Assembly: GCA_001779925.1 (NCBI GenBank)
Contig: MFEK01000014.1
Coordinates: 1,011 to 65,010 of the forward strand
DNA from: Candidatus Doudnabacteria bacterium RIFCSPHIGHO2_01_FULL_46_14
GTDB lineage: Bacteria > Patescibacteriota > Doudnabacteria > UBA920 > 2-01-FULL-46-14
Length of the DNA stretch: 64,000 nt
Direction of reading: 5' to 3'
Shown: positions 4,642 through 56,592 of the stretch, piece after piece
Layout: each line of letters begins with the position of its first letter
Position numbering within the stretch: position 1 is the first letter of the stretch
The notes under the pieces: model-generated
What the model saw: only the letters and a program-made list of their open reading frames with translations
What the model was told of the DNA's origin: nothing
Database searches by the model: none
Translations under genes and position numbers: made by a program

Positions 4642-6078
4642 TCAGTTTGGTTTCAGATAAACCAGCCTTAGGACATTCCCAGAGTAATCGGTTCGAATAT
4701 TTTCCAGAATCGATTCTGGCAGGTTCAGTTTTTTGAATGCTTGCTGCTCGATGACGACATATGACCCCGCCGGAATGTTCTGTCCATTTTTGATGAGTTC
4801 AAAACTCCGTTTGTTGCTGTAAAAGCTGATCGTATCCCAATAGTCGTATTCAAAAGCGTAGATTTTTTCCACATCGGTTTTCGTTGCCAAAAAGCGGCCA
4901 ACACCTCTTTCATCTTCAGAAATAGACTGGTTCACAGCCAGCTGTTTTTGTTTATTAAATCCGACATAGAGGGCGTTGGTAAATCCCGCAGTGAGCAGAA
5001 GGAATATTACAAAATAATATTTAGTGATATGAACCGCCTTGGCGCGGGCTAAAGAATCTGTAGCTAGAAGGCCGAGAAACAGAGCCATGAAGGGAATTGC
5101 TGGGATGGTATAGTAGAAGAGCTTTGTTCCTGCAGCAGCAAAAACCGTAAAGATAAATACCGCACTGCAGCCGAGCGCAAGGGCTTCTTTTTTTCGGCCA
5201 TTTGTTTTTAGCAGAGCAGTAGGTAAAGCAAGCAAACCGAGGCCAAAAAGAGCAAACCAGGGAAATTCGAAAAGAAAAGAAAATTTGAAATAGTTCCAGT
5301 TGGAAACTGCTTGTCCTCCGCCGATGACATTTTCACCAAATCGGCCAAGTACATGGTGTATAAAATATTCCTGCCAAAAAGCGCTGCCAAATTTTACAGT
5401 TTCGTATAAATGCCACGGCAAAATGATCGCGAGTCCCGCAAACCCTCCGAGCCAGAAATATTTGTTCTTTAGCCAGGAAAAATTTTTGAAAATGATTGAC
5501 CAGATCAGAATAGCCGGAAAAGCATAAAATCCAATAATGCTTTTAAACATTATGCCGACAGCAACACCGATACCTATTCCGATCAGCCACTTTGGATTTT
5601 TTAAGCCGCAAAGAAATGAGTAAAAAGAAAACATAATTGCCACAGTAACCGGAACATCGAGGCGCACCTGCCGTCCGGCAACGATCAGCGCGCCCATAGT
5701 TAAAAACATCAGACCGGTAACCAGGCTCATGAATTTATCTTTTGTTATTTCCCAGGCTAGCAGCATGATCAAAATAATTCCGGCGATGGAGAACAGGCTC
5801 GAAGGCAGGCGCAGAGAGAATTCGTCGAGTCCAAACATTTTTGATGAAATCATAGCCAGCCAGAAATACAGCGGCGGCTTTTCAAACCAGGGATTTCCGA
5901 GATGTTTAAGGGTTAATGGATCGGTGCCGGAGACGGTTTCCCTCACAACTTTTGCATAAATCGCTTCGTCATAGTCCTGCAGCGCGGGCTTGCCGAGTCC
6001 TGTAAGAAAAATTATCGAAGCCAAAATTCCAACACCTAAAAAAGCCAAAAGATAGCGTTTTTCCGGACTAATTGGCAT
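4642..6078 (-). CDS. GT-C fold membrane glycosyltransferase, PMT/ArnT (GT39/GT83-like) family
   Basis: About 11 predicted TM helices. N-terminal loop motif YDEAIYA (the DE motif of the PMT/ArnT family). C-terminal soluble domain. Confidence 0.6.
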   Translation of the reverse strand: MPISPEKRYLLAFLGVGILASIIFLTGLGKPALQDYDEAIYAKVVRETVSGTDPLTLKHLGNPWFEKPPLYFWLAMISSKMFGLDEFSLRLPSSLFSIAGIILIMLLAWEITKDKFMSLVTGLMFLTMGALIVAGRQVRLDVPVTVAIMFSFYSFLCGLKNPKWLIGIGIGVAVGIMFKSIIGFYAFPAILIWSIIFKNFSWLKNKYFWLGGFAGLAIILPWHLYETVKFGSAFWQEYFIHHVLGRFGENVIGGGQAVSNWNYFKFSFLFEFPWFALFGLGLLALPTALLKTNGRKKEALALGCSAVFIFTVFAAAGTKLFYYTIPAIPFMALFLGLLATDSLARAKAVHITKYYFVIFLLLTAGFTNALYVGFNKQKQLAVNQSISEDERGVGRFLATKTDVEKIYAFEYDYWDTISFYSNKRSFELIKNGQNIPAGSYVVIEQQAFKKLNLPESILENIRTDYSGNVLRLVYLKPN

Positions 6079-7159
6079 GGTAAATCAGTTCTTGATAAAC
6101 ATTTTCTGTTTTTTCAATCATCCTTGCGAGCGTGAACTGCAAGGACTTTTGTTTGGCGTTTTCCCCAAGACGCCGGGCGAGAATAGGGTCGCTTAAAATT
6201 TTGATAACAGCCTCAGCGAGAGCTTGAGGATTTTTTGGCGGCACCAGGATTCCAACCGCAGTTTCCTCCCCCCCTGTGGGGGAGGTTAGGTGGGGGGTAA
6301 GCATCTCAGGAACCCCTCCCACATTCGTAGAAACAATCGGTAATCCCGCTCGCATAGCTTCGAGAATCGTGTAAGGAAAACCCTCTTTGATCGAGGAGCA
6401 GGCATAAATATCAAACGTGGGAAGCAGTTGTGCCGCATCTGATACGCCGCTCACGATTTTTAGCTGCGCATTTGGAAAGTCAGCTTCGACAATTTTAAAT
6501 GCGGCCCGCAGGGTTTTGAGATCTTTGGTCGGATAGTCATGGGCAATCGTGCCGATGGTGATTTTTCCCTCCCCAGGCGTGGGGAGGGTGGTCGTTAGGC
6601 CGGGAGAGGTCGCAATCCCATTATGAATCGTGACGAGCTTTTCCTGCTTGGACAATTTGTCGGCTATAGCTGATTTTCTGTCAAATTCAGAGACAGTAAT
6701 AATTTTATTTCGAAATATTGAAGCTAATTTTTCCGCCCAGAAATAAATTTGTCTCACTAGAAAAGAGTTCGGTTCTAAAAATGCAAAGCCGTGAGCTGTG
6801 AACAAGACTGGTTTTCCAGCCAGCCAGCCTGCAAAACTGCCGATCACTCCGGCTTTGCTCGAGTTGAGATGCACAATATCTGGATCAAGCTCCCTGATCA
6901 GTTTTTTTAATTCCCAAATCGCGAGAAAATCCTTTAATGGGTGAATATTTCTGACGAGATTTCGGACTTTGAAAACCCGATATCCCTGATTCCCCAAAAT
7001 TTTCGACAAAGTTTCCGCATCATTGCCAATGGCTGCGAGGATTTCGTATCGATTCTTGTCCAAATTTGTAGCCAGATCAAAAACATAGCGCTGAGCGCCG
7101 CCCATCTCGCCTTGGGTGATTATTATGAGAATTTTTATCTTTTTGCCATTTTGACTCAT
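6068..7159 (-). CDS. Glycosyltransferase family 4 (GT-B)
   Basis: GT4 C-terminal signature E..GFPYTILEAMRAGLPIVSTNVGGVPEML. Contains two in-frame GC-rich palindromic inserts. Overlaps the downstream GT-C gene by 11 bp. Confidence 0.8.
   Translation of the reverse strand: MSQNGKKIKILIIITQGEMGGAQRYVFDLATNLDKNRYEILAAIGNDAETLSKILGNQGYRVFKVRNLVRNIHPLKDFLAIWELKKLIRELDPDIVHLNSSKAGVIGSFAGWLAGKPVLFTAHGFAFLEPNSFLVRQIYFWAEKLASIFRNKIITVSEFDRKSAIADKLSKQEKLVTIHNGIATSPGLTTTLPTPGEGKITIGTIAHDYPTKDLKTLRAAFKIVEADFPNAQLKIVSGVSDAAQLLPTFDIYACSSIKEGFPYTILEAMRAGLPIVSTNVGGVPEMLTPHLTSPTGGEETAVGILVPPKNPQALAEAVIKILSDPILARRLGENAKQKSLQFTLARMIEKTENVYQELIYHAN
6263..6300. repeat. In-frame GC-rich palindromic element copy within GT4 gene 6068..7159
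   Basis: CCTCCCCCCTGTGGGGGAGGTTAGGTGGGGGG. Its reverse complement matches copy 10741-10770 (CCCCCACCTAACCTCTCCCCTCAAGGGGGAG). Encodes TPHLTSPTGGEE in the gene frame. Confidence 0.7.
6565..6590. repeat. Second in-frame GC palindrome within GT4 gene 6068..7159 (linker region)
   Basis: CCCTCCCCAGGCGTGGGGAGGG. Encodes LPTPGEGK on the minus strand. Confidence 0.6.
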
Positions 7160-7282: not shown

Positions 7283-8113
7283 ATGCATGACAAGCATAAA
7301 ATCGGCATCGTGGGCGGTGGTGTGGTCGGCGGGGCAGTAAAGAACTTTTTCACGGAAGCCAAAGTCTACGATAAATATAAGAACCTTGATTCAATTGAAG
7401 AAGTAGCTTCCGCGCGCTTCATTTTTATCTGCGTGCCAACGCCCTTTGAAAATGGCCTGGATTTATCAATGGTGGACGACGCGGTAGCGAACGTTGTGTC
7501 TCACCTCGCGGACCCGGAAAATCAGCTTGTTGCTATCAAATCAACCGCCTGGCCGGGAACCACGCAAAGCTACCAAGATAAATATCCTGAGGCCAATTTT
7601 GCTTTTAATCCCGAGTTTCTTCGCGATAAAACTGCGAACGAAGATTTTATAAACAATGACCGGCAGATTGTGGGGTATACGAGCAAAACCAAAGACAGCC
7701 CCCTCGTGAAAGAGCTTTTGGAGATTCTACCGCGCGCGCCTTATGAAAAGATCATGCCCGCTGTAGACGCGGAAATGATTAAATATGCCGGCAATACTTT
7801 TTTGGCGCTTCAGGTGATTTTTGCCAATCAGGTTTTTGACATTTGTGAAGCTTCGGGGATCAGCTATGAGCAGGTGAAAGAAGCGGTGAAGGCGGACAAA
7901 CGAATTGGTAAAACGCACTGGGAGGTTTTTCATACAGAATCAAGCCTAGCCGCAAACATCAGTGATGCGTATCGCGGCTATGGAGGGAAATGTTTCCCCA
8001 AGGATATCAATTCGCTTATCCATGAAGGCCAAAAGATTGGAGTGGATGTGTCGCTCTTTGAGGTGGGCCGCGAGGTTAACCTCAAGCTAAATGGAGGCAA
8101 ATATGACAAATAA
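7283..8113 (+). CDS. UDP-glucose/GDP-mannose dehydrogenase-family protein, short form lacking the C-terminal UDP-binding domain
   Basis: GIVGGGVVG NAD fold; IKSTAWPGTT; FNPEFLRDKTANEDFINNDRQIVG; catalytic-Cys motif GYGGKCFPKD. Ends about 25 aa after that motif. Confidence 0.7.
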   Translation: MHDKHKIGIVGGGVVGGAVKNFFTEAKVYDKYKNLDSIEEVASARFIFICVPTPFENGLDLSMVDDAVANVVSHLADPENQLVAIKSTAWPGTTQSYQDKYPEANFAFNPEFLRDKTANEDFINNDRQIVGYTSKTKDSPLVKELLEILPRAPYEKIMPAVDAEMIKYAGNTFLALQVIFANQVFDICEASGISYEQVKEAVKADKRIGKTHWEVFHTESSLAANISDAYRGYGGKCFPKDINSLIHEGQKIGVDVSLFEVGREVNLKLNGGKYDK

Positions 8114-8909
8114 GCCTTCTTTCAAAATCGCCATTGTCGGCGGGGGAGCGGTCGGCAAGGCCATTTCGGCGTATTACGGGCGGGTAAAAATCTACGATAA
8201 ATATCATCCGGTGGATTCGCTTGATGAGGTCTGCGATGCTGATTATATCTTCGTGGCTGTGCCTACGCCATTCGATGATGCCAAAGGCCAGCCGGATTTA
8301 ACAGAAATGGATGATGTTCTGACAGTACTTGCCAAAAATATGAAACGGCCGGCCGAACAGGTGGTAATCATCAAATCAACAGTGTTTCCCGGAACAACCC
8401 ATGGTTATCAGGAGAAATTTCCCAGTCTAAATCTGATTTTCAATCCCGAGTTTTTAACGGAAAAGACAGCGGTTGAAGATTTCGCCAGGCCTGACAAACA
8501 GCTCGTGGGTTTCACATCCAAATCCGTCGAGTTTGCAGAAAAGGCGATGAGCATCCTGCCGCGGGCGCCTTACGAAAAGATCATGCATGCCAGGGCTGCA
8601 GAAATGACTAAATATGTTATCAATACCTACTATGCTTTTAAGGTTATATTCGGTAATTCTATTTATGATCTATGCCAGAAAACCGGCGCTGATTACGATC
8701 AGGTGCGAGAGGGTTTGGTGCGCGATAAGCGAATCATTGATTCTCATTTTGACGTTTTGCACGGCGGATATCGCGGTTACGGCGGCAAATGCCTGCCAAA
8801 AGATGTGAAGACCCTTGCCTGGTTTGGCAGCAAAAACGGCAAGCCCGTAAAATTTATCGAAACTATTATTAAACTGAACGAAAAACTGGCATGGCAAAAG
8901 CACTTGTAA
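8103..8909 (+). CDS. Second tandem UDP-glucose-dehydrogenase-family paralog, also a short form
   Basis: FKIAIVGGGAVG, IKSTVFPGTT, FNPEFLTEKTAVEDFARPDKQLVG, GYGGKCLPKD. ATG at 8103 gives a small overlap with the previous gene. Confidence 0.7.
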   Translation: MTNKPSFKIAIVGGGAVGKAISAYYGRVKIYDKYHPVDSLDEVCDADYIFVAVPTPFDDAKGQPDLTEMDDVLTVLAKNMKRPAEQVVIIKSTVFPGTTHGYQEKFPSLNLIFNPEFLTEKTAVEDFARPDKQLVGFTSKSVEFAEKAMSILPRAPYEKIMHARAAEMTKYVINTYYAFKVIFGNSIYDLCQKTGADYDQVREGLVRDKRIIDSHFDVLHGGYRGYGGKCLPKDVKTLAWFGSKNGKPVKFIETIIKLNEKLAWQKHL

Positions 8910-9806: not shown

Positions 9807-11015
9807 ATGGATAAGCCGCGCATTTTAATTTTCAGCATTGCATATGAGCCGCTGGTGGGCGGAGCAGAGCTGGCGATCAGGTACATTACTGATCGCATTT
9901 TTGATTATGAGTTTGATTTGATCACCGTGCGTTTCGACCGCGCGCATCCGAAACAAGAAAAAATCGGCAATGTCAATGTTTACCGGGTCGGTTTTGGCTC
10001 CAGACTGGGAAGGCTATTGTATCCGGCTTTCGCCCTTCGCCTCGCAAAAAAACTTCACAGCAAACAGAATTACCAAATCACCTGGGCAATAATGGCTGCA
10101 TACGCTTCTGCGGCAGCGCTCATGTTCCAAAGGCGTTTCCCGACTGTAAAATTTTTATTAACTCTTCAGGAAGGGGATACCATCGAACACATCCACAGTC
10201 GGGTAAAAGGATTTAAAAAGGTTTGGCAACAATCATTCAAAAAAGCTGACTATATACAGGTAATCAGTAAATTTTTGGCCCAATGGGCAGTCAAAGAAGG
10301 CGCGACTTGTCCGGTAGAGGTGGTGCCGAATGGGGTCGACTTAGAAAAATTCAAAATTCAAAACTCAAATGTCAAAATTGCAAATCAAAATTCAAAATTT
10401 ACTATCATCACAGCTTCGCGGTTAGTGCATAAGAATGGAATAGATATTTTGATTCATGCTGTTTCTAAACTTCAGACTTCAAACTTCCAACTTCAAATCC
10501 TCGGCGCTGGGCCAGAAGAAGCAAGATTGAAAAAACTAGCCGCAGATTTGAAAATCGCAGATCGCATTGAGTTCCTCGGCAACATTTCTCAGGAAGAGCT
10601 GCCTAAATATTTGTCGGAGTCGGACATTTTTGTGAGACCCTCACGCTCGGAAGGCTTAGGCACGGCTTTTTTGGAAGCTATGGCTGCAGGTTTGCCGATT
10701 ATTGGAACTCCTGTCGGCGGCATACCTGATTTCCTCCACCCCCACCTAACCTCTCCCCTCAAGGGGGAGAAAAATGCAGAGAAGTCCGGTATTATTCCCC
10801 TCCCTCGAGGGGAGGGTGAACCAAATGGATTATTTTGTAAAGCTGATGACCCCGCTGATCTAGCTGAGAAAATCAAAATACTGATGCAAGATTCCGACTT
10901 GAGAAAGAAATTAGGACAAAATGGGAAAAGACTAGTAGAAGAGCAATATTCCTGGGATATAGTGGACGGGAAGATGAAGGGGATTTTTAGTAAAATTTTA
11001 TATTTTAAATTGTAA
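9807..11015 (+). CDS. Glycosyltransferase family 4 with a 30-aa in-frame repeat-element insert
   Basis: GT4 motif EGLGTAFLEAMAAGLPIIGTPVGGIPDFL followed by the insert HPHLTSPLKGEKNAEKSGIIPLPRGEGEPN, then GLFCKADDP.LAEKI. Low-complexity linker KFKIQNSNVKIANQNSKF. Confidence 0.8.
   Translation: MDKPRILIFSIAYEPLVGGAELAIRYITDRIFDYEFDLITVRFDRAHPKQEKIGNVNVYRVGFGSRLGRLLYPAFALRLAKKLHSKQNYQITWAIMAAYASAAALMFQRRFPTVKFLLTLQEGDTIEHIHSRVKGFKKVWQQSFKKADYIQVISKFLAQWAVKEGATCPVEVVPNGVDLEKFKIQNSNVKIANQNSKFTIITASRLVHKNGIDILIHAVSKLQTSNFQLQILGAGPEEARLKKLAADLKIADRIEFLGNISQEELPKYLSESDIFVRPSRSEGLGTAFLEAMAAGLPIIGTPVGGIPDFLHPHLTSPLKGEKNAEKSGIIPLPRGEGEPNGLFCKADDPADLAEKIKILMQDSDLRKKLGQNGKRLVEEQYSWDIVDGKMKGIFSKILYFKL
10347..10400. 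repeat. A-rich CAAAAT-type low-complexity repeat inside GT4 linker (arm 1 of an inverted pair)
   Basis: AAAATTCAAAATTCAAAACTCAAATGTCAAAATTGCAAATCAAAATTCAAAATTT. Confidence 0.5.
10733..10822. repeat. In-frame GC-rich palindromic element (about 90 bp) within GT4 gene 9807..11015
   Basis: CCTCCACCCCCACCTAACCTCTCCCCTCAAGGGGGAG...CCCCTCCCTCGAGGGGAGGG. Two hairpins. Encodes HPHLTSPLKGEKNAEKSGIIPLPRGEGEP. Confidence 0.75.
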
Positions 11016-11048
11016 TTTTGCATTTTGATTTTTCAATTTTGAATTTCC
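11013..11048. repeat. Inverted copy (about 85% identical) of the 10347-10400 repeat, intergenic
   Basis: TAATTTTGCATTTTGATTTTTCAATTTTGAATTTCC is the reverse complement of AAATTCAAAATTGAAAAATCAAAATGCAAAATT. Confidence 0.5.
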
Positions 11049-11049
11049 T

Positions 11050-12723
11050 ATGACCAAGCTTCAAAAACAATTACTCGCCGGCATTTTATTGCTTGCAGCT
11101 GTGCTGATTTTTTTCCGGCTCACGCGGCACGACCCACTCGGCGATGACGCGCATTATTCTTTCCGCGCAATAGGTTATTTTGATTATCTTGGTTCCAAAG
11201 AGCAGACCACGCCCGTGCAGTGGTTCGGACACCGGCCAGCCTGGTCGTATCTGTCATTCCACGATCATCCGCCCCTGGTGTTTTTGATCCAGCATATTTT
11301 TTTTAGTATTTTCGGGGTGTCGTTGTTTGTGTCTCGTTTGCCGTCGGCCCTGGCCGCCCTGGGCTCGGTATTGGTCATATTTTTTATAGCCAAGCGCCTG
11401 GCTGGCCCCAAAGCCGGGCTGGCCGCCGCCCTGGCTTTGGCTGTAAACAATTATTTTATCTGGACCGGGCGAATCGCTCTTCTCGAAAGCGTCTTTATTT
11501 TTTTCCTGCTCCTGTCTTTTCTATATTTGCTGAAAACGTTTGAGGATTCGAAATATTTTATTCACACCGGTCTTTTTTTCGGCCTGAGCTTGCTTTCCAA
11601 ATATACCGTGCTGTTTATCCTGCCTGCGGTGCTTTTGTTTCTGGTCTGGAAGCACCGATGGATTTTTAAAAATAAAAGATTCTGGCAGGGAATGATGGTA
11701 TTTTTGGTTTTGTGCCTTCCCGTGGTGATTTATAATCTCATGATGTTCAAAACTCGGGGCCATTTCGACGTGCAGTTTGCGGATTTATTCGGGCAGGTTC
11801 ATAATGACTGGCCGAAACTCGCAATGCGAATCAGCAAACCTGATCCGAATTTTTTGGGCGTTTTGACCACGATAGCCGATGGTTTTTCTTGGCCTTATTT
11901 TGCGGCGTTTATTTTGAGCATTTTTTTCAGCCTGCATCTGGCCAGACGCGCTGCCGCAGTCTACCTTTTTGTTTTCGCGGCAGTGTCCTTGTTTTTCTTT
12001 TTTGCCTTTGCCGGCGGAGCTGTCCGGTGGATGGGAGTGCTGGCGCCTTTTGCGGCCCTGCTCGTTGGTTTGGCAGCTGCGGCGTTTGCAGAGCGTAAAA
12101 AATATCTTGCCGCCGCCGTAGCTATTCCGTTTGCCGTCTTTTCAATTTTTTATACATGGAACACCAATCATCTGAAGCGCCCGGTCGCAGGCCCGAATTG
12201 GTATGCCGGATTTCGTTTGGAAAATTACGGGTACAATCAGCTCGACAAGGAAATCTCAAAACTGCTCACTGGCAAAAAACCAACGCCGAAAATTAAATAC
12301 GCGACGACCCAATGGTGGTACCGCGATCTTGATGAAAAAGCAATCGAGTTCCCTATCATTAATCAAGGGGCAGGAGTTTTCGGCTCAGCGATTATCGTTG
12401 ATTCCGAGCACATCTGGTTTCCTATGTATTGGGCCAAAGAAAAATGGAAATTCTATCACCGATTTTCCATTAAAACCTCAAACGAGTTTTTGCAGGTTGT
12501 TGATGCTAAGGGCGGACTCGAGATTATCAATTTTGTGCAGTTTGATAAAATTTACTATTTTAAATCCGGCCCGCGGATCAGGGAGACCGCTGATTTGAAA
12601 TATGAGGGATCTGATCCGCTTTTTGAAGCGATTCTAAAAAAAGGGATCTTACCCAAAATCATTTATGACGACCAGGGCAATGAAGCGTTTTATATGTATG
12701 AAACAAGCGAGCTGGCCATATGA
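11050..12723 (+). CDS. GT-C fold membrane glycosyltransferase (PMT/ArnT-like), second paralog
   Basis: Polytopic membrane protein, N-terminal loop DDAHYSF (DE motif). Ends with TGA that is the first base triplet of junction element J1. Confidence 0.55.
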   Translation: MTKLQKQLLAGILLLAAVLIFFRLTRHDPLGDDAHYSFRAIGYFDYLGSKEQTTPVQWFGHRPAWSYLSFHDHPPLVFLIQHIFFSIFGVSLFVSRLPSALAALGSVLVIFFIAKRLAGPKAGLAAALALAVNNYFIWTGRIALLESVFIFFLLLSFLYLLKTFEDSKYFIHTGLFFGLSLLSKYTVLFILPAVLLFLVWKHRWIFKNKRFWQGMMVFLVLCLPVVIYNLMMFKTRGHFDVQFADLFGQVHNDWPKLAMRISKPDPNFLGVLTTIADGFSWPYFAAFILSIFFSLHLARRAAAVYLFVFAAVSLFFFFAFAGGAVRWMGVLAPFAALLVGLAAAAFAERKKYLAAAVAIPFAVFSIFYTWNTNHLKRPVAGPNWYAGFRLENYGYNQLDKEISKLLTGKKPTPKIKYATTQWWYRDLDEKAIEFPIINQGAGVFGSAIIVDSEHIWFPMYWAKEKWKFYHRFSIKTSNEFLQVVDAKGGLEIINFVQFDKIYYFKSGPRIRETADLKYEGSDPLFEAILKKGILPKIIYDDQGNEAFYMYETSELAI

Positions 12724-12806
12724 ACCGCGTTAGAAATTTTATTCAGCATATACTCAAAAATTTATGATTACATCAGCTATTAACCAAAAGGATTTCTAAC
12801 GGGGTG
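12721..12806 (+). repeat. MITE-like gene-junction element J1 (TIR ACCGCGTTAGAAAT / ATTTCTAACGGGGT)
   Basis: Left end TGAACCGCGTTAGAAAT supplies the stop of 11050..12723. Right end AAGGATTTCTAACGGGGTGAAAA supplies the SD and GTG start of 12804..13913. Confidence 0.8.
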
Positions 12807-13913
12807 AAAATTTTAATTTGTACCGGGATTTTTCCTCCTGACGTGGGCGGTCCGGCAACCTATTCGAAAATTCTTGCAGAAGAACTGGTTAAACATGGCC
12901 ACGCGGTTAAGGTAATTACTTATGCTGGTCGTATTTATCCCCCTTCCCTTGAGAGAAGGGGGACTCTGGGAGAGGCGGATTTTGAATTGATCCGAATTCA
13001 ACGCAGCCGATTCAAACCTCTGCATTATTTCAGATTTTACCGTACCGTTCTGAAACACGGCCGAGACGTTGATGTGATTTACGCTCAAGGTCCGGTTTCA
13101 GAAGGATATCCGGCTTGTCTGGCGGCTAAGAAATTAAATAAACCACTCGCAGTAAAGATAACAGGAGATTACTCCTGGGAGCAGGCGATGGGCCGGGGTT
13201 TAACCGACGAGCTGATTGATGCGTTTCAGAACCTCTCTTTCTACCCTCCAAGAATCCAACGAATGCGCAGAATCCAGAAACTAGTTTGCGATTATGCAAA
13301 TATAATAATCACGCCCTCAGAATATTTAAAAAAGGTTGTTAGCGGTTGGGGGGTAGATCCGGGGAAAATTAGAGTTATTTATAATTCGGTAGAGATGCCA
13401 GAATCAATAATTACGAATCAAGAATCAAGACAAAAGCTAGGAATCCCCAAAGACAAATTTCTAATAGTCTCTTCTGGACGCAATGTACCGTGGAAAGGAT
13501 TTGAATTATTGAAGGAAGTTATGGCAGAATTACAGAAAGATCATCCTGAGATGATGCTGAAAATCCTGCATGATGCGCCGCGCGGGCTGCTCCATGAATA
13601 TATCCGGGCGGCAGATCTGTATGTGCTAAACACCGGCTATGAGGGGTTATCCAATACTCTCGTGGAAGTTCTGCGCCATAGGATACCTGTAATCACCACC
13701 AACGTCGGCGGCAACCCGGAGATAATCAGGGATGGCGAAAATGGGCTACTCGTGGAATACAATAATATAGAGCAGTTGAAAGACGCAATTTTGAGATTGT
13801 ACTCTGACAAAGAATTACGTAATAAATTACGTAATTCTTCCGGCCTGGAAAAATTCGATCTCGCGCAGATGATCAGTAAAACCGAGGAGGTTCTCAAACA
13901 ATGCGCGTCCTAA
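12804..13913 (+). CDS. Glycosyltransferase family 4 (GTG start from junction element)
   Basis: GT4 C-terminal domain (EGLSNTLVEVLRHRIPVITTNVGGNPEII.DGENGLLV). N-terminal-domain loop carries an in-frame GC palindromic insert (IYPPSLERRGTLGEADFE). Confidence 0.8.
   Translation: MKILICTGIFPPDVGGPATYSKILAEELVKHGHAVKVITYAGRIYPPSLERRGTLGEADFELIRIQRSRFKPLHYFRFYRTVLKHGRDVDVIYAQGPVSEGYPACLAAKKLNKPLAVKITGDYSWEQAMGRGLTDELIDAFQNLSFYPPRIQRMRRIQKLVCDYANIIITPSEYLKKVVSGWGVDPGKIRVIYNSVEMPESIITNQESRQKLGIPKDKFLIVSSGRNVPWKGFELLKEVMAELQKDHPEMMLKILHDAPRGLLHEYIRAADLYVLNTGYEGLSNTLVEVLRHRIPVITTNVGGNPEIIRDGENGLLVEYNNIEQLKDAILRLYSDKELRNKLRNSSGLEKFDLAQMISKTEEVLKQCAS
12949..12987. repeat. In-frame GC palindromic element within GT4 gene 12804..13913
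   Basis: CCCCCTTCCCTTGAGAGAAGGGGGACTCTGGGAGAGG. Encodes PPSLERRGTLGEA. Confidence 0.6.
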
Positions 13914-14989
13914 TGATCAGCCTGGACAGGGGACTTTTGGGGGCGGCCGGGTCAGGGGATGTGGCCGAGCGCCATAAAAAATATGCGAGTCTGGCAGGCG
14001 CGCTGGATATTATTGTGTTTGCGTCTCCCAAATATTCACAGCTCACGCTGGCGCCGAATCTGCGGGTATTTCCTACGCGGTCCAGCAAATTCGCGCATTT
14101 TCACCGCGCCGCGGAACTCACAAAAAAATTATTGAAAGAGAATCAGTATGACCTTTTGGTAACCCAGGAATTCACCGCGCCGGCCGGGCTGAAGATCAAA
14201 AAATTTCTTGACATTCCCTGGATCATCAATATTCACAGCATGTTTTTTTCCACGCAGTGGCTGGGGTTTAATCTTATCTATTGGTATTTGTTTTTTCTCA
14301 TGAAAAAATCCATAAGATCCGCGGACGGCTTTCGGGTTACCAATGATGCGATCAGAAAAAAGCTGACTGATTGGGGGATTGCCAAGCCGATTTTGGTGCA
14401 ACCGACGCCAGTGAATATAGAAAAGTTTAAAATAGAAAGCGGAAAGTTCAAAGTTGAAAATCAAAATCCAATAGTGCTGTATGTCGGCAGATTGGAACCT
14501 GAAAAGAATGTTTCACTTTTGATACGGGCATTCAAAAAGCTCAAGGATGAAGCCCAATTGCAGATTGTCGGCAAAGGATCGCAGGAAAAAGAATTGAGAA
14601 GATTGGCCGCCGACGATTTGCGCGTGGAATTTTTCGGAGCGAAATCCTCGGATGAATTGCCGGAGATTTACCGCAGTGCAGACATTTTTGTTCTGCCTTC
14701 AAACTCAGAGAGTTTCGGCAAAGTGCTCATAGAAGCTGGCGCGGCAGGATGCGCCCTGGTTGCGACTGAAACTGCCGGCGCCAAAAGTATTTTGGAAAAT
14801 GATGAGGCGGGGATATTGGTACCGGTTGGGGATACTGCCGCTTTGACCCGCGTTCTGCAAAACCTCGTCGGTAAAAAATTTGAACGAGAGTATTGGGGGC
14901 AAAGAGCTAGGGAAATCTCAAAAAAATACAATGCGGAGACTGCAACCCAGCGGATCATTGATCTGTGGAAGGAGGTCGCGGCAAAATGA
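13901..14989 (+). CDS. Glycosyltransferase family 4
   Basis: ESFGKVLIEAGAAGCALVATETAGAKSIL.NDEAGILVP. 13-bp overlap with the upstream gene. Confidence 0.8.
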   Translation: MRVLMISLDRGLLGAAGSGDVAERHKKYASLAGALDIIVFASPKYSQLTLAPNLRVFPTRSSKFAHFHRAAELTKKLLKENQYDLLVTQEFTAPAGLKIKKFLDIPWIINIHSMFFSTQWLGFNLIYWYLFFLMKKSIRSADGFRVTNDAIRKKLTDWGIAKPILVQPTPVNIEKFKIESGKFKVENQNPIVLYVGRLEPEKNVSLLIRAFKKLKDEAQLQIVGKGSQEKELRRLAADDLRVEFFGAKSSDELPEIYRSADIFVLPSNSESFGKVLIEAGAAGCALVATETAGAKSILENDEAGILVPVGDTAALTRVLQNLVGKKFEREYWGQRAREISKKYNAETATQRIIDLWKEVAAK

Positions 14990-15570: not shown

Positions 15571-16634
15571 AACTCCTTTTTATTACCAGAAAAGTCGACA
15601 TTAACGATCCCATGCAAGGATTTATCTTTTCATGGCTCAATAAATTTGCGTCAAAGCTCGAAAAGTTGTATGTAATTTGCCTGGAAACCGGCGCGGGCAA
15701 CGAGCTTTTGCTGGAAAAAAATATTGAGGTATATTCCATGGGCAAAGAGAAGGGCAAAAACCGTTTGCGGGAATTTTTCAATTATCTCATGTGGCTCAAA
15801 AAAACCGTGCCCCAGTCTGATGGGATCTTTGTGCACATGCATCCTGTGTATGCGATTATTGCTTGGCCGTTTGCGAAACTTTATCGCAAAAAATTAACTC
15901 TTTGGTACACGCACAAAGCCGTGGATCTGAAACTGCGCGTTGCGCATCTGCTCGTTGACATTGTATTTACCGCTTCCAAGGAAAGTTTTCGCATCAAGTC
16001 AAATAAAGTGAAAGAGATCGGTCATGGAATAGATGTTGAGCGATTATCACCTAACTCTCTATTTACAATGAAAAAGAATGGCCATAGGCTTGTATCATTT
16101 GGAAGGATTGCTCCTGTAAAGAAACTCGAAGTCTTGATTGAAGCGATGAATATTCTGATCAACAAAAGAAAATTGGACGTGACTTTGGACATTTTCGGCA
16201 ATGCAGCATTGCCTGCGGATGAAAAGTATAGACAATCGCTAAAGAATAAAATCGTTCAGTATGGATTCGGGAAAAAGGTTGAATTGCTGGACGCAATGCC
16301 ACACACACATCTTATGCAGGTTTTATCATCGTCCTATGATATAGTAATTAATCTTTCGGAAACCGGCAGCATTGATAAAGCGGTAGTTGAGGCCGCTTCT
16401 TGCGGTACGATTGTCATCACCACAAATGAGGCCTTTAAAAACCAACTGCCAAAAATTTCAGATAAGCTGTTTCTCGAGAGAAACGATCCCGAAAAGCTAG
16501 CCAGCAGGATTGCCGAGCTCGTTGCGCTCCCGCAAGACGAGAAAGACCGTTTAGGTGAAGCATTGCGCAATTGGGTTGCTACATCGCACAATTTAGAAAA
16601 TTTGGTTGAGAAAGTAATCGCTGCTTACAAATGA
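15567..16634 (+). CDS. Glycosyltransferase, GT4-like C-terminal domain
   Basis: LVSFGRIAPVKK...ETGSIDKAVVEAASCGTIVITTNEAFK. Terminal TGA is part of junction element J2. Confidence 0.65.
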   Translation: MKLLFITRKVDINDPMQGFIFSWLNKFASKLEKLYVICLETGAGNELLLEKNIEVYSMGKEKGKNRLREFFNYLMWLKKTVPQSDGIFVHMHPVYAIIAWPFAKLYRKKLTLWYTHKAVDLKLRVAHLLVDIVFTASKESFRIKSNKVKEIGHGIDVERLSPNSLFTMKKNGHRLVSFGRIAPVKKLEVLIEAMNILINKRKLDVTLDIFGNAALPADEKYRQSLKNKIVQYGFGKKVELLDAMPHTHLMQVLSSSYDIVINLSETGSIDKAVVEAASCGTIVITTNEAFKNQLPKISDKLFLERNDPEKLASRIAELVALPQDEKDRLGEALRNWVATSHNLENLVEKVIAAYK

Positions 16635-16717
16635 ATCCCGTTAGAAATCTATTTTTCCACAATAATTGCAAATTTTTATGAACTCTGCTATTAACTATAA
16701 GGATTTCTAACTGGGTG
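16632..16717 (+). repeat. MITE-like gene-junction element J2
   Basis: TGAATCCCGTTAGAAAT ... AAGGATTTCTAACTGGGTGAAAA. The interior shares AAATTTTTATGA..CTATTAAC..AAGG with J1. Confidence 0.8.
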
Positions 16718-17878
16718 AAAATTTTATTTGTGGCTTACAAATTCGGCACAGAAAAAGAAATCGGGGAGCATCTCGGTACCTACCATTATTTTATTGAAAC
16801 CCTGCGGCGCATGGTTGCCCTGGGGCATGAGGTTTCTGTTGCTGCGCCGTGGTTGTCTTTTAGGCGACGCGGCAGCGAGGATGTTGATGGGGTAAAAGTT
16901 TTGCGTTACTATCCACCTCTGTTTAACAGGCCGAAATCCCTGCTCGTAAACTGGATATTGCGTTCTTGGTATATTATGGCGACCAGCAGACGAATCCTCG
17001 ACCTTGATCGTAAACAACAGTGGGACGCGATTTGCGTGTGGCAGGCGCGCGAGACCGGCTTTGCCGTGGCGAAAATTGCTTCAAAGCTGCGCGCCCCTTT
17101 TATTTTCCGCCAGATCACGGCCTGGCAATGGCATTTTGAACGGATGAAGCGAGACCGGAAATTTCAGGAAAAATTCGCCAAAGCCATTTATGCTTCTGCC
17201 AAACAAATTATTTTTGTAAGCCGCGCTGCCGCTGATGCGGAACGAGCCTTGGGCTTGCCGGAGGAAAAAATCCGTATTATGGCCGTGGCCATTGAAACCG
17301 ACCTATTCAAGCCTGGAAATCAAAGCAAAAACGGCAATACCATTTTATTTGTCGGCCGAATCAATTTTGCGGAAAAAGGCATTGGCTATTTGCTGGATGC
17401 CATGCCAGAAGTACTGCGCCGACTGCCGGCAGCAAAGCTGGTGATTGTCGGCGGTGGTGGAGAGTCGCAGCGTTTGCTTGCTCAAATAAAAACCCTTGGT
17501 ATTGAAAATTCCGTGCGGGTTGTCGGGGAAAAGCCATTCAACGAGCTTCCTCAGTATTTGAACGCCTCTGATGTGATGGTTGTACCCTCCATATGGCTGG
17601 AGGCTTTCGGCCAGGTTACGATCATCGCCATGGCTTGCGGTGTGCCTGTGGTGACCTCTGACATTGGCGGAAGCGTCGAGATAAACTTGGACGGGCAAAC
17701 AGGCTTTGTGGTTCCCCGGGCTGATTCACACGCGCTTGCCGAGGCGATCCTCAAGATTTTGCGCGATCCGCAGCTTGCCAAAACGCTCGGGCAGAATGCC
17801 CGCAAACGGGTCGAGGAACATTACAGTTACGAGGTTCTGGTTAATAAATTTTTGAAACTGATTGGCGAACTCAAGTGA
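16715..17878 (+). CDS. Glycosyltransferase family 4 (GTG start; no palindromic insert)
   Basis: EAFGQVTIIAMACGVPVVTSDIGGSVEINLDGQTGFVVP. Canonical GT4 loop, useful for comparison with the insert-bearing paralogs. Confidence 0.8.
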   Translation: MKILFVAYKFGTEKEIGEHLGTYHYFIETLRRMVALGHEVSVAAPWLSFRRRGSEDVDGVKVLRYYPPLFNRPKSLLVNWILRSWYIMATSRRILDLDRKQQWDAICVWQARETGFAVAKIASKLRAPFIFRQITAWQWHFERMKRDRKFQEKFAKAIYASAKQIIFVSRAAADAERALGLPEEKIRIMAVAIETDLFKPGNQSKNGNTILFVGRINFAEKGIGYLLDAMPEVLRRLPAAKLVIVGGGGESQRLLAQIKTLGIENSVRVVGEKPFNELPQYLNASDVMVVPSIWLEAFGQVTIIAMACGVPVVTSDIGGSVEINLDGQTGFVVPRADSHALAEAILKILRDPQLAKTLGQNARKRVEEHYSYEVLVNKFLKLIGELK

Positions 17879-17975
17879 ATCCCGTTAGAAATCAGAAGCA
17901 GAAAATTAGAGGTAAATTATGATTAATTATGAAATGGATTCAGAAGAAAAAAAGACCCGAATTTCTAACGGGGTG
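17876..17975 (+). repeat. MITE-like gene-junction element J3
   Basis: TGAATCCCGTTAGAAAT ... CCGAATTTCTAACGGGGTGAATAAA. Confidence 0.8.
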
Positions 17976-19702: not shown

Positions 19703-19735
19703 TTACGTAATTAATTACGTAATCAGTTACGTAAC
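19703..19735. promoter_or_regulatory. Three tandem TTACGTAA palindromic half-site repeats (candidate operator)
   Basis: TTACGTAA at 19703-19710, 19715-19722 and 19727-19734, immediately upstream of a small AbrB/MazE-like ORF. Confidence 0.4.
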
Positions 19736-19922: not shown

Positions 19923-20096
19923 TGAAACAAAATTGCTCAAACCGTTTGCTGCCAATAAACTTGATTTTATGAACAACCTTAGAAAAAAACTTCAGTATAA
20001 ATCAAAACGAGAGCCAATTACATAAGGACGAAACCTCATGAACCTGCTCTCATCGTGAGCATGATATATTAGCAAAATTTTTATAGATTGTCAAGC

Positions 20097-21284
20097 ATGA
20101 AAATTTTTTACATTGCCAACGCCAGGATACCGACCGAAAAGGCGCACGGGATTCAGATAATGAAAATGTGCGAGGCTTTCGCGCGTCTGGGGCACGACGT
20201 AAAGCTGATAATTCCGAGTCGCGTTTCCCATATTGAGGAAGAGGCATTCGCGTACTATGGTATGACGAAAACTTTTGAGATTGTTTATTTGCCGTCGCTC
20301 GACCTCATCCGCTGGAGCGGATGGATTCCGAAAATATTTGCTTATTTGCAGAATTGGTCGTTTAGTAATTCCGTCCAGAAATTTTTGGATGACAATCAGG
20401 CAGATTTGCTTTACACCCGTGATGAGCTGACCGCCCTGTCATTGCCTAGAAACCTGGAAATTATTTTGGAAGTGCATAATGTTTCGAGGATTTTGCGAAA
20501 TAATACAGAGCGATTAAATAAACTGCAAAAAATAATTTCCATCACTGCGGGCCTGAAAAATGAACTGATGCGGCTGGGGTATGAGGCAAATAAGATTCAA
20601 GTCTTACCGGATGGGGTGGATTTGAAAAATTTCACCCTCCCCCAACCCCTCCCTGCCTCGCCGGCAGGCGGGCCCTCAAGGAAGGGGAATTCCTCCCCCT
20701 TGAGGGGGGAGGATAAAGGAGGGAGTGGTAAAAGAACTATAATGTATACAGGCAATTTTTTTGCCTGGAAAGGAGTCTACGTTTTAGCCGAGGCCACAAG
20801 ACTCTTACCAGAATATCAATTTGTATTTGTCGGCGGCTCGCCAGACGAACAGGAAAAATTTCAAGATTATATAAAAAGACAGTCATATAACGATCGTGAT
20901 ATAGCTGTCAAGAATATTAAGTTAACTGGACACGTACCGCATAATCAAATTCCTGAATATTTATCGCATGCAGATGTGCTGGTTCTGCCCAACTCGGGCA
21001 AAACCCCGATTTCAAGATATTACACCTCGCCTATGAAAATGTTTGAATATATGGCGGTTGGAAAGCCAATAGTGGCCTCGGACATGCCGTCGATTCGGGA
21101 AATCCTTAATGAATCTAATTCGATTCTTGTGAAACCAGACGATCCGCAGGCGCTGGCTCAGGGAATAAAAAAAGCGATCGAAGATTCTGAATTGGCAAAA
21201 AGAATCGCCGCACAAGCCTCGACAGACGCAAAAAAATACACCTGGCAAAACCGGGCAAAAGCCGTCATTGATTTAATGTCATAA
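20097..21284 (+). CDS. Glycosyltransferase family 4 with in-frame GC palindromic insert in the interdomain linker
   Basis: ATG at 20097 (MKIFYIANARIP). Insert encodes TLPQPLPASPAGGPSRKGNSSPLRGEDKGGSGK. C-terminal GT4 motif SPMKMFEYMAVGKPIVASDMPSIREIL. Confidence 0.8.
   Translation: MKIFYIANARIPTEKAHGIQIMKMCEAFARLGHDVKLIIPSRVSHIEEEAFAYYGMTKTFEIVYLPSLDLIRWSGWIPKIFAYLQNWSFSNSVQKFLDDNQADLLYTRDELTALSLPRNLEIILEVHNVSRILRNNTERLNKLQKIISITAGLKNELMRLGYEANKIQVLPDGVDLKNFTLPQPLPASPAGGPSRKGNSSPLRGEDKGGSGKRTIMYTGNFFAWKGVYVLAEATRLLPEYQFVFVGGSPDEQEKFQDYIKRQSYNDRDIAVKNIKLTGHVPHNQIPEYLSHADVLVLPNSGKTPISRYYTSPMKMFEYMAVGKPIVASDMPSIREILNESNSILVKPDDPQALAQGIKKAIEDSELAKRIAAQASTDAKKYTWQNRAKAVIDLMS
20631..20730. repeat. 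In-frame GC-rich palindromic element (about 100 bp) within GT4 gene 20097..21284
   Basis: TTCACCCTCCCCCAACCCCTCCC...CCTCCCCCTTGAGGGGGGAGG. Begins with the same TTTCACCCTCCCC as the intergenic copy at 26828. Confidence 0.75.
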
Positions 21285-26633: not shown

Positions 26634-26807
26634 ATGTCAGAAGACAAGCTGAGCAAAATTTTAGAAGTCGTTATCCACCTAAAAGATAAGATAGATAACG
26701 ATATGGTGACGAAAGACGAATTCGCAGAATTCAGGAGCGAGAACACTGCTCATATTGACGGTTTTATTAAGCTACATCAAACACTGGATACGTTGCGGGC
26801 GGGTTAG
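26634..26807 (+). CDS. Hypothetical small protein (57 aa), not in the ORF track
   Basis: ATG preceded by AGGA. MSEDKLSKILEVVIHLKDKIDNDMVTKDEFAEFRSENTAHIDGFIKLHQTLDTLRAG. No recognisable family. Confidence 0.25.
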   Translation: MSEDKLSKILEVVIHLKDKIDNDMVTKDEFAEFRSENTAHIDGFIKLHQTLDTLRAG

Positions 26808-26870
26808 GTAGGGGTGGTGAAAAGTTTCACCCTCCCCTTACCCCTCCCCTCAAGGGAGGGGAATAATGAG
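26803..26870. repeat. Full-length intergenic copy of the GC-rich poly-C/poly-G palindromic element
   Basis: GGGTTAGGTAGGGGTGGTGAAAAGTTTCACCCTCCCCTTACCCCTCCCCTCAAGGGAGGGGAATAATGAGG. Nested palindromes GGTGAAA/TTTCACC and CCCCTCCC/GGGAGGGG. The track ORF 26814..27005 is merely its translation. Confidence 0.75.
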
Positions 26871-27009
26871 GATTGCAAAAGGAGACCGTACAGATACAAT
26901 CAAAGCCTGCAATCTTATTTGGGGATGATAGGTCACAGCGATGGTTACGATCTCAGCATAGTCTTAAAGAATAACTTTTTCATACCTCGCGAGAAACGGA
27001 AATAACAAG

Positions 27010-39836: not shown

Positions 39837-39909
39837 ACCATCAACGAGCCGGCAGAAGACCTTATTAGGACTTGCTGCCGGTTCAACATTTTTGCCATAA
39901 TAGCTTATT

Positions 39910-54776: not shown

Positions 54777-56441
54777 ATGACGCAAGTGCAAGCTCTGGCG
54801 ATTTTAAAAACCGGAGCGAATGTTTTTTTGACTGGGGAACCAGGGGCCGGTAAAACTCACATTGTCAATGAATATGTCGCGTATCTGCGCAGACGGGGGA
54901 TAACGCCAGCCATCACTGCCTCAACCGGCATTGCCGCCACACACATAAGCGGTATGACCATCCATTCCTGGAGCGGCATTGGCATCAAAACCCACCTTGA
55001 TAAATACGACCTTGACCGTATTGCCTCAACCGAGCGAGTGGTGAGACGCATTGAAAACACATCTGTTCTGATCATTGACGAGATTTCTATGTTATCTTCC
55101 GGGACGTTGTCTATGGTGGATGCGATTTGTCGCGATGTGCGGCGCTCTCCAGATCAAGCGTTCGGCGGCCTGCAAACTATTTTCGTTGGCGATTTTTTCC
55201 AACTGCCTCCAGTTTCAGAAAACTCGGATCACGGCTTCGCTTACGAGTCTCCTGCCTGGAGCGCTGCCGATCCCACGGTTTGTTATTTGACTGAACAGTT
55301 CCGTCAGGATGACGAGGATTTTTTGACTCTGCTCAAAGCCATTCGCGCCAATACTTTCAACAGCGATCACGAGCGGTATATGCTGTCACGAAAAAAACAG
55401 GTGAGCGAAGTCTCTGAATCCATCCCGCGATTTTTCCCGCACAATGCCCAGGTTGACCGGGTGAATGAGGATAGGCTCAGCAAGCTTGCTGGAGACCCAA
55501 AAATATTTGCCATGTCTACGAAAGGCGCTGCAGCACTCGTGGAATCACTCAAGAAAGGCTGTTTGTCGCCAGAGAATTTACAGCTCAAGGTTGGCGCGGC
55601 CGTGATGTTTACGAAAAATGTGCAGAAACAAGGTTTTGTGAATGGCACGCTGGGCACTATCAAAGATTTCAACACCACTACAGGTCTGCCGATCGTGAAG
55701 ATGAGAAGCGGCCGAACCGTCACAGTGGAACCAGCGGAATGGTCATTGCAAGAAAACGGCCGCGTGCGGGCGAGTATCACACAGCTTCCGCTGCGCCTGG
55801 CATGGGCCATCACTGTGCATAAAAGCCAGGGCATGAGTCTTGATGAAGCGGCCATGGATCTCTCAAACGTGTTTGAATACGGCCAAGGCTATGTAGCGCT
55901 GTCGCGCGTCCGCCGCCTCTCGGGCCTGCATATTTTCGGCTGGAACGCGCGCACCTTTCAGGTGCATCCGGAGATTTTGGCAAGCGACAACCAGTTCCGC
56001 AGCGCATCTGCTACGGCCGAAATAGCGTTAAATAGCATGCCTGCAGAAACACTTCAAAAAGCTCATGACGATTTTGCCGCGCGCTGCGGCGGGCATCCGG
56101 AATCTGCCGAAGATTCTCCCGGAGAAGAGCTCTCTGCGCTCGATACCTATGGCATTACCCTCGCATACTGGAACGAAAACAAGACTCTCGCTGAGATTGC
56201 CACTGTGCGCGAGCTCAAGGAGGAAACGATTTTGTCGCACATCGAAAAACTCGCGAACACAGGCAAGATTGCCAAAACCGACATCTCTCGCCTCCTTACC
56301 CCAGCGCTCGACCAGGCTCTGCCGGAAATCCACGCCGCGTTCCGCGAGCTTGGCCATGACAAACTCTCGCCCATCAACGCCCATTTTTCCGGCCGCTATC
56401 CCTACGACAGCCTGCGCATCGCGCGCATGCTTTTGAAATAA
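54777..56441 (+). CDS. PIF1/RecD-like superfamily-1 DNA helicase
   Basis: Walker A LTGEPGAGKTH; ASTGIAATHISGMTIHSWSGIG; Walker B LIIDEISML; QFRQ; KSQG; SRV motif. Typical PIF1-like layout. Confidence 0.7.
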   Translation: MTQVQALAILKTGANVFLTGEPGAGKTHIVNEYVAYLRRRGITPAITASTGIAATHISGMTIHSWSGIGIKTHLDKYDLDRIASTERVVRRIENTSVLIIDEISMLSSGTLSMVDAICRDVRRSPDQAFGGLQTIFVGDFFQLPPVSENSDHGFAYESPAWSAADPTVCYLTEQFRQDDEDFLTLLKAIRANTFNSDHERYMLSRKKQVSEVSESIPRFFPHNAQVDRVNEDRLSKLAGDPKIFAMSTKGAAALVESLKKGCLSPENLQLKVGAAVMFTKNVQKQGFVNGTLGTIKDFNTTTGLPIVKMRSGRTVTVEPAEWSLQENGRVRASITQLPLRLAWAITVHKSQGMSLDEAAMDLSNVFEYGQGYVALSRVRRLSGLHIFGWNARTFQVHPEILASDNQFRSASATAEIALNSMPAETLQKAHDDFAARCGGHPESAEDSPGEELSALDTYGITLAYWNENKTLAEIATVRELKEETILSHIEKLANTGKIAKTDISRLLTPALDQALPEIHAAFRELGHDKLSPINAHFSGRYPYDSLRIARMLLK

Positions 56442-56592
56442 ATAAGATTAGCTTGCCCGCCTCGTCATAGCTTTTTGACCGTCCGAAGCCTTGGCGGAGG
56501 TGGAAGGGGAGGGTGATAATAATATGGCCAATAGAAAATCCAGCGAACAAAATATTCGCCATGGAGAGGTTTTTGTTTATATGAAAAAGAAA

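Follow-up and report, generated by a model that had tools for sequence, protein, structure and literature searches.

The 64,000-nt stretch analysed here (hereafter, the window; positions 1,011 to 65,010 of contig MFEK01000014.1, from Candidatus Doudnabacteria bacterium RIFCSPHIGHO2_01_FULL_46_14) carries two glycosyltransferase (GT) genes of family GT4 in which related extra segments occupy the same loop of the encoded proteins. The first gene, GT4-A (9807..11015, plus strand), codes for a protein of 402 aa with Glyco_transf_4 and Glycos_transf_1 domains, and the second, GT4-B (6068..7159, minus strand), for one of 363 aa assigned to GT4/Glycos_transf_1. In GT4-A, GGIPDFL is followed by HPHLTSPLKGEKNAEKSGIIPLPRGEGEP and then by NGLF (wider context, PVGGIPDFL ... 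NGLFCK; insert DNA at 10733-10822); in GT4-B, read on the minus strand, GGVPEML is followed by TPHLTSPTGGEE and then by TAVGILV (context, NVGGVPEML ... TAVGILVPP; DNA at 6263-6300). The sequence CCCCACCTAACCTC[T/C]CCC and a G/C hairpin lie directly 3′ of the GGxP[DE] motif in both genes, and both inserts, which share the peptide PHLTSP, have identical orientation and reading frame. As discussed below, these segments are probably copies of a small dispersed palindromic repeat.

The proposal, made in the initial annotation, that the same element is found at the homologous loop of both genes, in the same orientation and frame, is supported by direct comparison. A 19-mer core, CCCCACCTAACCTCTCCCC, is exact at 10740-10758(+) and has two mismatches at 6277-6295(-), although only 0.01 chance matches with up to three mismatches are expected and none of 100 shuffles contained two or more; a G/C hairpin follows each core, and BLASTP aligns the two loops to each other. 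The remainder of the genes is far more divergent. BLASTP finds 31% protein identity, in an alignment limited to the C-terminal domain, and the codon-aligned DNA is 42% identical overall, reaching 77-80% only in two 10-codon windows over the insert, with 57-63% in the best-conserved block of flanking DNA. These values rule out that the two genes are recent duplicates. The objection raised along with the original proposal, that the insert had simply been inherited through a recent duplication, consequently fails, as the high DNA identity is confined to the insert, which behaves as an insertion.

The repeat was located in the window with a covariance model, R1, that supersedes an earlier nhmmer profile built from five window copies. 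There are seven sites, five of them inside genes and two intergenic. The 90-nt insert of GT4-A contains two units in inverted orientation, a feature overlooked in the initial annotation. Unit A1 (10730..10775, plus strand), of the variant called v3 below, reads CACCCCCACC-TAA-CCTCTCCC-CTCAA-GGGGGAGA, is translated as HPHLTSPLKGEK and scores 45.6 bits with R1 (E 1.3e-10). Unit A2 (~10790..10823, minus strand) is partial and inverted, with a hairpin, CCCCTCCC-TCGA-GGGGAGGG, at 10798-10816 and the translation IIPLPRGEGE; it scores 21.6 bits and is 96% complementary to the intergenic positions 26842-26867. Together, A1 and A2 constitute a doublet similar to those called REPINs (repetitive extragenic palindromic, or REP, doublets forming hairpins), and the 104-nt region folds as a single long hairpin (-41 kcal/mol, z -2.3). 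The loop of A2 is CTCGAG in place of the CTTGAG observed in other copies, which removes a TGA otherwise present in its reading frame. The loop of GT4-B holds one unit, B1 (6260..6306, minus strand), also of the v3 type, with the sequence ACCCCCCACC-TAA-CCTCCCCC-ACA-GGGGGGGAGG, an 8-bp stem and 36.5 bits (E 3.6e-8), and has no counterpart of A2.

An AlphaFold2 model of GT4-A has a predicted local distance difference test (pLDDT) score of 89.8 and is of low confidence only at the linker (residues 181-190) and at the insert (311-340), where pLDDT is 54-71. The low-pLDDT linker is repeat-derived as well. Inserts, including B1, are identical in the other metagenome assemblies of the organism that cover them (loci L001-L004). 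B1 contains a run of seven G (window 6268-6274, in the minus-strand gene), a length that can slip; it is the same in three other covering assemblies, and, at the assembly level, no variation in the length of the G/C run, as expected of a phase-variable homopolymer tract, was found between L001-L004. Thus, neither strain polymorphism nor phase variation is visible at that level.

The linker of GT4-A also bears an A-rich repeat (AAATTCAAAATTCAAAA...; 10342-10400, translated KFKIQNSNVKIANQNSK). A similar copy is present at 14418-14471, in the linker of the GT4 gene 13901..14989, and an inverted copy at 10993-11046, just after the GT4-A stop codon (54-nt arms, 81% complementary). Variants of this peptide, KFKIQNSKFKI or NFQFSISNFQS, occur at the equivalent linker of orthologues.

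The history of the inserts was examined in 66 orthologues of GT4-A and 62 of GT4-B, from Candidatus Doudnabacteria and other Parcubacteria. Some 50 of the 66 have the canonical loop GGIPDFLxDGETGLF, and about 48 of the 62 the canonical loop GGIPEAIxDGxEGLLV. The short xDGxxG loop is, therefore, ancestral in both families, and vertical inheritance of the insert from the common ancestor of the paralogues is rejected. In neighbour-joining (NJ) trees built without the loop columns, the presence of the insert is patchy: parsimony requires at least eight state changes for the 10 filled members of the GT4-B family and at least 10 for the 13 filled members of the GT4-A family. For instance, P0123, the nearest neighbour of the window GT4-B, is canonical (TDGRE), and so are P0134 and P0135, with which P0136 (TPHLTSPT...IPLPSWEGQGEGAT) groups. 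Both the GT4-A and the GT4-B counterparts are canonical in a syntenic 21-kb Doudnabacteria locus (L126), where R1 found no match at E<=1, and one contig of assembly GCA_030700065 combines a filled B-orthologue (P0136, with a doublet) with a canonical A-orthologue. In assembly GCA_023246055, the equivalent loop of a third paralogue family is filled (L006; CGNPEII-TSLPSPPHEGGTEGGLSA-NGIL); its window counterpart, GT4-C (12804..13913), is canonical there. Additionally, the equivalent loops of P0048, P0152 and P0009 contain inserts that are unrelated to the element.

P0136 and P0135 provide a filled and an empty allele for comparison, their proteins being 82% identical and their DNA, gaps excluded, 78%. 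The empty allele of P0135 reads ATG ATC ACT GAT GGC CAA AAT GGC ATT; in P0136, 105 nt replace the 12 nt GAT GGC CAA AAT and are followed by GGA. P0136 has a second extra segment (RARPLTPERSDGG) that is absent from P0135 and represents another small GC-rich insertion (L005 10001-11278 vs L124 569-1708). Parts of diversity-generating retroelements (reverse transcriptase, bAvd) were observed beside or near the GT4-B orthologue in three related loci (L007 11127-12526, L126 5628-5978 and L005 942-1841), and none was seen at the corresponding place of the window.

The repeat is not restricted to these genes. When one genome per species was scanned with a pattern covering only the hairpin core (CYCCCCTCRAGGGRGRGRAAW), at least 116 stretches matched, while about 17 would be expected by chance according to our own estimate. 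The observations on the family given in this and the following three paragraphs were made among the matches listed, which include Nitrospirota, Dehalococcoidia, Atribacterota, Elusimicrobiota, Deltaproteobacteria, Planctomycetota, Omnitrophota, metagenome-assembled genomes (MAGs) of Rickettsiales, Melainabacteria, several groups of the candidate phyla radiation (CPR) and others. Approximately 22 nt upstream of the hairpin are conserved, although they lie outside the search pattern. The unit, of about 41 nt, consists of (T)TCAC, a C-rich 8-mer, TTAAT or TAA, an 8-bp stem with a CTCAA loop, and AAA or AAT, the linker between the C-rich tract and the stem being 3-5 nt long. It occurs singly or as inverted doublets (in GT4-A, GT4-D, L019, L047, L051 and L081), and three main variants can be distinguished by their upstream tract and purine arm: v1 (CCCTCCCC and GGGAGGGG, respectively), v2 (CCCTCACC and GGGAGAGG) and v3 (CCCCCACC and GGGGGAGG), the last of which includes A1 and B1.

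In an alignment of 49 units (A3; loci L008-L123), 99.5% of the stem cells are paired, and two positions are compensatory, changing on both sides. The C-rich tract upstream mirrors the 5′ stem arm, and the two co-vary. With the tract and the purine arm read in parallel at a register shift of 0, the non-C positions of the former fall on the A positions of the latter in 79 of 93 units; for any other register or orientation the count is 0-4 of 93, and for shuffles it averages 27 and reaches 42 at most. Two other relationships were discarded on the same grounds (0-4/93 against 79/93 in parallel): that the tract directly repeats the 5′ arm, and that it is the antiparallel complement of the purine arm. 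One of the variable positions is T.A or C.G in 46 of the 49 units, and the other is mostly A opposite A. Judging from the sequences, this strand order would fit an intramolecular pyrimidine-purine-pyrimidine triplex, a reading that in its strict form is partly supported. The mirror co-variation may also stem from shared descent, as there are only about three large sub-families.

In P0002, P0136 and the window unit D1 (see below), the loop of the first hairpin harbours another small palindrome of a different kind, indicating that small palindromes insert into one another. Within the main unit, in its loop or stem region, a small GC palindrome, TGCCTCGCCGGCAGGCGGGC or CGCCTGCCGGACGGGCAGGCA (read RLPDGQA), lies nested at window positions 20654-20673 (in D1), at L005 10043-10063 and in the linkers of P0070 and P0081.

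With regard to genes, 18-28% of the units are in long open reading frames (ORFs), compared with 66-81% of random positions in the same loci, so the repeat generally avoids genes or is purged from them. This tendency differs between groups, as six of 10 CPR sites but only 12 of 110 units in other phyla are within ORFs (Fisher P 7e-4). The host ORFs were identified by eye, from their translations only, as CarA-, TsaD-, KsgA-, Tgt-, aminopeptidase N- and thioredoxin-like in CPR, and as MutS-like, HypF-like and others elsewhere. The copies within ORFs have both orientations and several frames, giving peptides such as SPSPNPSPQGRG, SPPPNLPPQGGG, HPHLASPLKGEE, IPPPRGGRLGGG and SPPLRGGDEGEGE, and HPHLTSP-type peptides are also found in the P0130 linker and, in another CPR genome, within the Tgt-like ORF. 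The copies in GT4-A, GT4-B, GT4-C and GT4-D are in frame in ORFs that are kept intact, and other CPR or MAG copies are likewise in long intact ORFs. No recurrent gene was found next to the copies by an all-vs-all BLASTP of the 1296 ORFs within 2.5 kb of 116 loci, beyond one family present in seven loci.

Database and literature searches returned little. One tRNA aside, no Rfam family reached its gathering score in the window or in six element-bearing loci, and only chance-level matches were found below threshold around 26700-27000. Full-text literature searches for the DNA core and the encoded peptides gave nothing relevant, and no description of the repeat was found in the literature on CPR and palindromic repeats. 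A collection of phage records contained no match, and one of plasmid records a single match, in an unannotated Nostoc record.

The remaining window sites comprise three in GT genes and two between genes; four copies of the window other than A1 and B1 are of the v1 type. The linker of GT4-D (20088..21284) contains an inverted doublet (20626..20734; D1(+) at 20626-20688 and D2(-) at 20687-20734) that is translated as FTLPQPLPASPAGGPSRKGNSSPLRGEDKGGSGK, scores 53.7 bits (D2) and 17.4 bits (D1) and has a predicted fold of -58.8 kcal/mol (z -3.0). Two degenerate units on the minus strand are weak matches: one in the interdomain linker of GT4-B (6562..6597; SPGLTTTLPTPGEGK), with the hairpin CCCTCCCC..GGGGAGGG (12 bits, E 0.13), and another in an N-terminal loop of GT4-C (12934..12985; translated IYPPSLERRGTLGEA), with its hairpin at 12940-12961 (8.9 bits, E 0.84). 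The best copy of the window, the full-length intergenic unit E (26821..26866, plus strand; 58 bits, E 6e-14), is of the v1 type, lies between a pfkB kinase gene and a GT9 gene, and has an inverted partner tract, rich in G, ahead of it at ~26801-26822. Finally, a degenerate intergenic unit (56472..56522, minus strand; 17.1 bits, E 0.0056) is located downstream of the ORF 54777..56441.

The explanation that we favour, with reasonable though by no means full confidence, is that each PHLTSP segment is a copy of a small palindromic repeat, dispersed and non-coding, the two being the result of independent arrivals that survived in tolerant loops. The copies would have reached GT4-A and GT4-B separately, being neither ancestral to the paralogues nor copied between them. 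As intergenic space is scarce in this CPR genome, many copies would land in genes, where a copy would survive only if the frame is kept, stop codons are absent and the protein tolerates extra residues at that place. In the GT-B fold, the tolerant internal sites would mainly be the interdomain linker and the loop after GGxP[DE], and, these being few, the equivalent loop would become occupied repeatedly, in paralogues as well as in orthologues. A resemblance between the end of the element (TCAC / GGTGAA) and the purine-rich xDGxxG codons may add some target bias.

Several observations are in agreement with this proposal. Internal gains of five or more residues are few in both orthologue alignments and mostly affect the linker and the equivalent loop; that these two places are the main hot-spots for insertions and deletions, and also the low-pLDDT segments, favours structural tolerance, a simpler cause than those considered in the initial annotation, and the unrelated inserts in the equivalent loop of P0048, P0152 and P0009 point in the same direction. 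If there are some three to five tolerant internal sites, two paralogues sharing one of them would be unremarkable. Neither are the shared frame and orientation strong evidence of a common event: of the frames of the v3 consensus, only two forward ones (HPHLTSPLKGEE and SPPPNLPPQGGG) and a single reverse one are open, so that the prior probability of coincidence is roughly one in two or three. Additionally, A1 and B1 match each other at 32 of 36 positions and the cross-phylum v3 consensus at 34 of 37 and 32 of 35, respectively; being as close to the consensus as to each other, they do not need gene conversion between paralogues to be explained.

Other observations weigh against independent arrival followed by survival in tolerant loops. 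All five intragenic window sites are in genes of the GT-B fold, which account for 14% of the window (P ~9e-4), an enrichment that tolerance alone may not account for. The NJ trees are poorly resolved, so the counts of state changes lean high and independent gains may be overestimated, and the GT4-A insert is common to its closest relatives P0002 and P0004, so that it has clearly been inherited for some time in that sub-lineage. No target duplication, which the initial annotation had suggested looking for, was seen at the P0136/P0135 junction, the one filled/empty pair; this absence, together with the replacement of 12 native nt, is a poor fit to clean cut-and-paste insertion. No linked transposase was found among the ORFs within 2.5 kb of the copies, and we therefore infer the mobility of the element from its distribution alone; its way of moving and the number of independent events would have to be read in the same manner. 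Lastly, the window GT4-A and P0002, whose proteins are only 68% identical, have about 21 identical nt in the A2 hairpin, and third-codon-position identity at conserved residues is 0.79 within the insert (19/24) against 0.50 outside (245 residues). This excess hints at constraint or homogenisation at the nucleotide level, rather than passive decay, and the intact hairpins of the coding copies also argue against decay that is purely passive.

Among the alternatives, the one that survives best, although we consider it unlikely, is that insertion is mainly directed by sequence, the element or its machinery preferring DNA similar to its own 5′ end, as supplied by xDGE/xDGxxG codons. At four junctions, the native codons coincide with the 5′ end of the unit, (T)TCAC(C): the B family has ATC ACT, the GT4-D linker AAT TTC and the A loop, on the other strand, GGT GAA (its DGE), a coincidence that could be due to chance with so few junctions. 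The occupation of the equivalent loop in three paralogue families and the GT-B enrichment described above would also be expected under this explanation, as would the lack of target duplication together with a short conserved sequence 5′ of the hairpin, as in single-strand HUH systems such as IS200/IS605 and REP (PMC6006769). However, TCAC is much too common to single out one loop, the same element is present at various positions and in various frames of several unrelated housekeeping proteins (as identified by eye), the inserts of P0048, P0152 and P0009 were placed in the equivalent loop without being copies of it, and the fetched loci showed no HUH transposase gene, though no search was aimed at one. 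The preference proposed in the initial annotation, for the DNA encoding the GGxP[DE] turn itself, is not borne out, as the junctions lie in the following xDGxxG codons; a preference of some kind, secondary to structural tolerance, is possible in view of the TCAC/GGTGAA overlap.

Alternatively, the segment could be kept for a function, the recurrence at the equivalent loop being the product of selection for it; the candidates would be an mRNA hairpin by which translation is slowed near domain boundaries, a structure of the DNA or RNA to which a host factor binds, or a flexible Pro/Gly-rich loop that alters the behaviour of the glycosyltransferase. The intact hairpins, the conservation of the A2 hairpin between GT4-A and P0002 with its third-position excess, the identity of the inserts in four independent metagenome assemblies, and the conservation of the unit across phyla with three-way co-variation, among the matches listed, could all be understood in this way. 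By contrast, most orthologues manage without the insert, the encoded peptides are of very different lengths and sequences, the confidence of the model is low over the segment (pLDDT 54-71), and, again among the matches listed, the unit is mostly intergenic in other phyla. Taken together, these points make a retained function improbable, even more so than directed insertion. Gene conversion between GT4-A and GT4-B, also raised in the initial annotation, would explain the identical position, orientation and frame as well as the shared v3 type of A1 and B1 in a window where four other copies are v1, but it is highly improbable, as the flanks, at 57-63% at best and 42% overall, are too low in identity for homologous exchange, A1 and B1 are no closer to each other than to the v3 consensus, GT4-B has a single unit where GT4-A has an inverted doublet, and P0136, a B-orthologue, has a doublet while the A-orthologue on its contig is canonical.

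The repeat is of a known kind: it behaves as an in-frame palindromic element, like the Rickettsia palindromic elements (RPEs), and it has an architecture similar to that of REPs and REPINs, although it departs from REPs in the defining features detailed below, and no description of it was found. RPEs are dispersed palindromic repeats that occur in frame in unrelated protein-coding genes, and, by analogy with their description, the behaviour of the present repeat is that of a selfish dispersed repeat (PMC10969869). Compared by description, both are found in frame in unrelated ORFs, encode a peptide tolerated by the host protein and inhabit small, gene-dense genomes. Nevertheless, RPEs are of ~100-150 bp and confined to Rickettsia, whereas the present unit is of about 41 nt (90-110 nt for a doublet), G/C-rich and common to many phyla. 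MITEs (miniature transposable elements with inverted repeats), which sometimes form in-frame fusions with host ORFs (PMC10969869), are similarly non-autonomous, short and dispersed, but a single unit is far shorter than typical MITEs, and the one junction available, P0136/P0135, did not show terminal inverted repeats with a target-site duplication around them.

The likeness to REPs, to the bacterial interspersed mosaic elements (BIMEs) and to the REPINs mobilised by REP-associated tyrosine transposases (RAYTs, or TnpA-REP) lies in the similar size (REPs are of 21-65 nt) and in the short conserved sequence 5′ of the hairpin, which in REPs is GT[AG]G, 0-2 nt 5′ of the hairpin foot (PMC6006769). 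Additionally, besides single copies there are inverted doublets, which fold as one long hairpin, and no target duplication was seen. Outside CPR, the unit is mostly extragenic, as REPs are, but 5/7 window sites are in genes. The GT[AG]G of REPs is absent from the hairpin foot in the 49 units of alignment A3, drawn from the matches listed, which have TTAAT or TAA there and, before it, CAC with a C-rich tract; REP families are species-specific and co-evolve with one RAYT, whereas the present unit has one consensus across phyla; and the fetched loci, to which the search was confined, showed no RAYT. The native TCAC, TTC or GGTGAA at the 5′ end of the unit recalls elements of the IS200/IS605 type, although it is known from four junctions only and could be chance, and no TnpA was found. 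The small dispersed repeats (SDRs) of Nostoc and other cyanobacteria, which Elhai et al. reportedly described in 2008 (Genome Res), are very small hairpin repeats of 21-27 nt that insert into one another and into genes. The nested insertion into hairpin loops would be a likeness to SDRs, and their size and cyanobacterial hosts a difference; the one plasmid match is a Nostoc record. A broader proposal, to which we give only tentative credit, is that this is an undescribed small element of many phyla with a triplex-like three-part structure, which would be recognised by widely shared or horizontally spread machinery, would insert by TCAC-like sequences and hairpin loops, and would be a significant source of loop sequence in the gene-dense genomes of CPR.

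Other features of the window were also noted. A second, intergenic repeat family has a left arm, GAAYCCCGTTAGAAAT, and a right arm, ATTTCTAACGGGGTGAAAA, separated by 60-160 nt, with sites at 12717-12812, 16628-16723, 17872-17981, 39907-40002, 42224-42406, 46375-46455 and 48618-48639. In all seven copies, the downstream ORF either starts at the GTG of the right arm or has that GTG in frame, and the arms pair in RNA folds, in which the start region would be buried. A palindromic ATTACGTAAT in tandem (ATTACGTAATNAATTACGTAAT) is present at two gene boundaries of the glycosyltransferase cluster (13814-13835 and 19702-19735). Two adjacent, overlapping genes (7283-8113 and 8091-8909), of ~275 aa each, match the N-terminal and central domains of UDP-glucose/GDP-mannose dehydrogenase, and this arrangement is conserved in the related loci L001 and L007.

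The colonisation of genes, in frame, by palindromic repeats is best documented in Rickettsia. If the explanation preferred here is true, Doudnabacteria and other CPR would be another group with reduced genomes in which protein loops have been shaped by the insertion of repeats, the equivalent loop being occupied in at least three glycosyltransferase families and several housekeeping enzymes having apparently been reached. The element is of interest in its own right, as it combines near-identity across phyla (among the matches listed), compensatory stems, a mirror-co-varying tract and nested insertions with no known mobilising enzyme. For annotation, it follows that, where CPR proteins contain segments rich in Pro and Gly, such as HPHLTSPLKGE or SPSPNPSPQGRG, these would have to be regarded as repeat-derived rather than as functional motifs.

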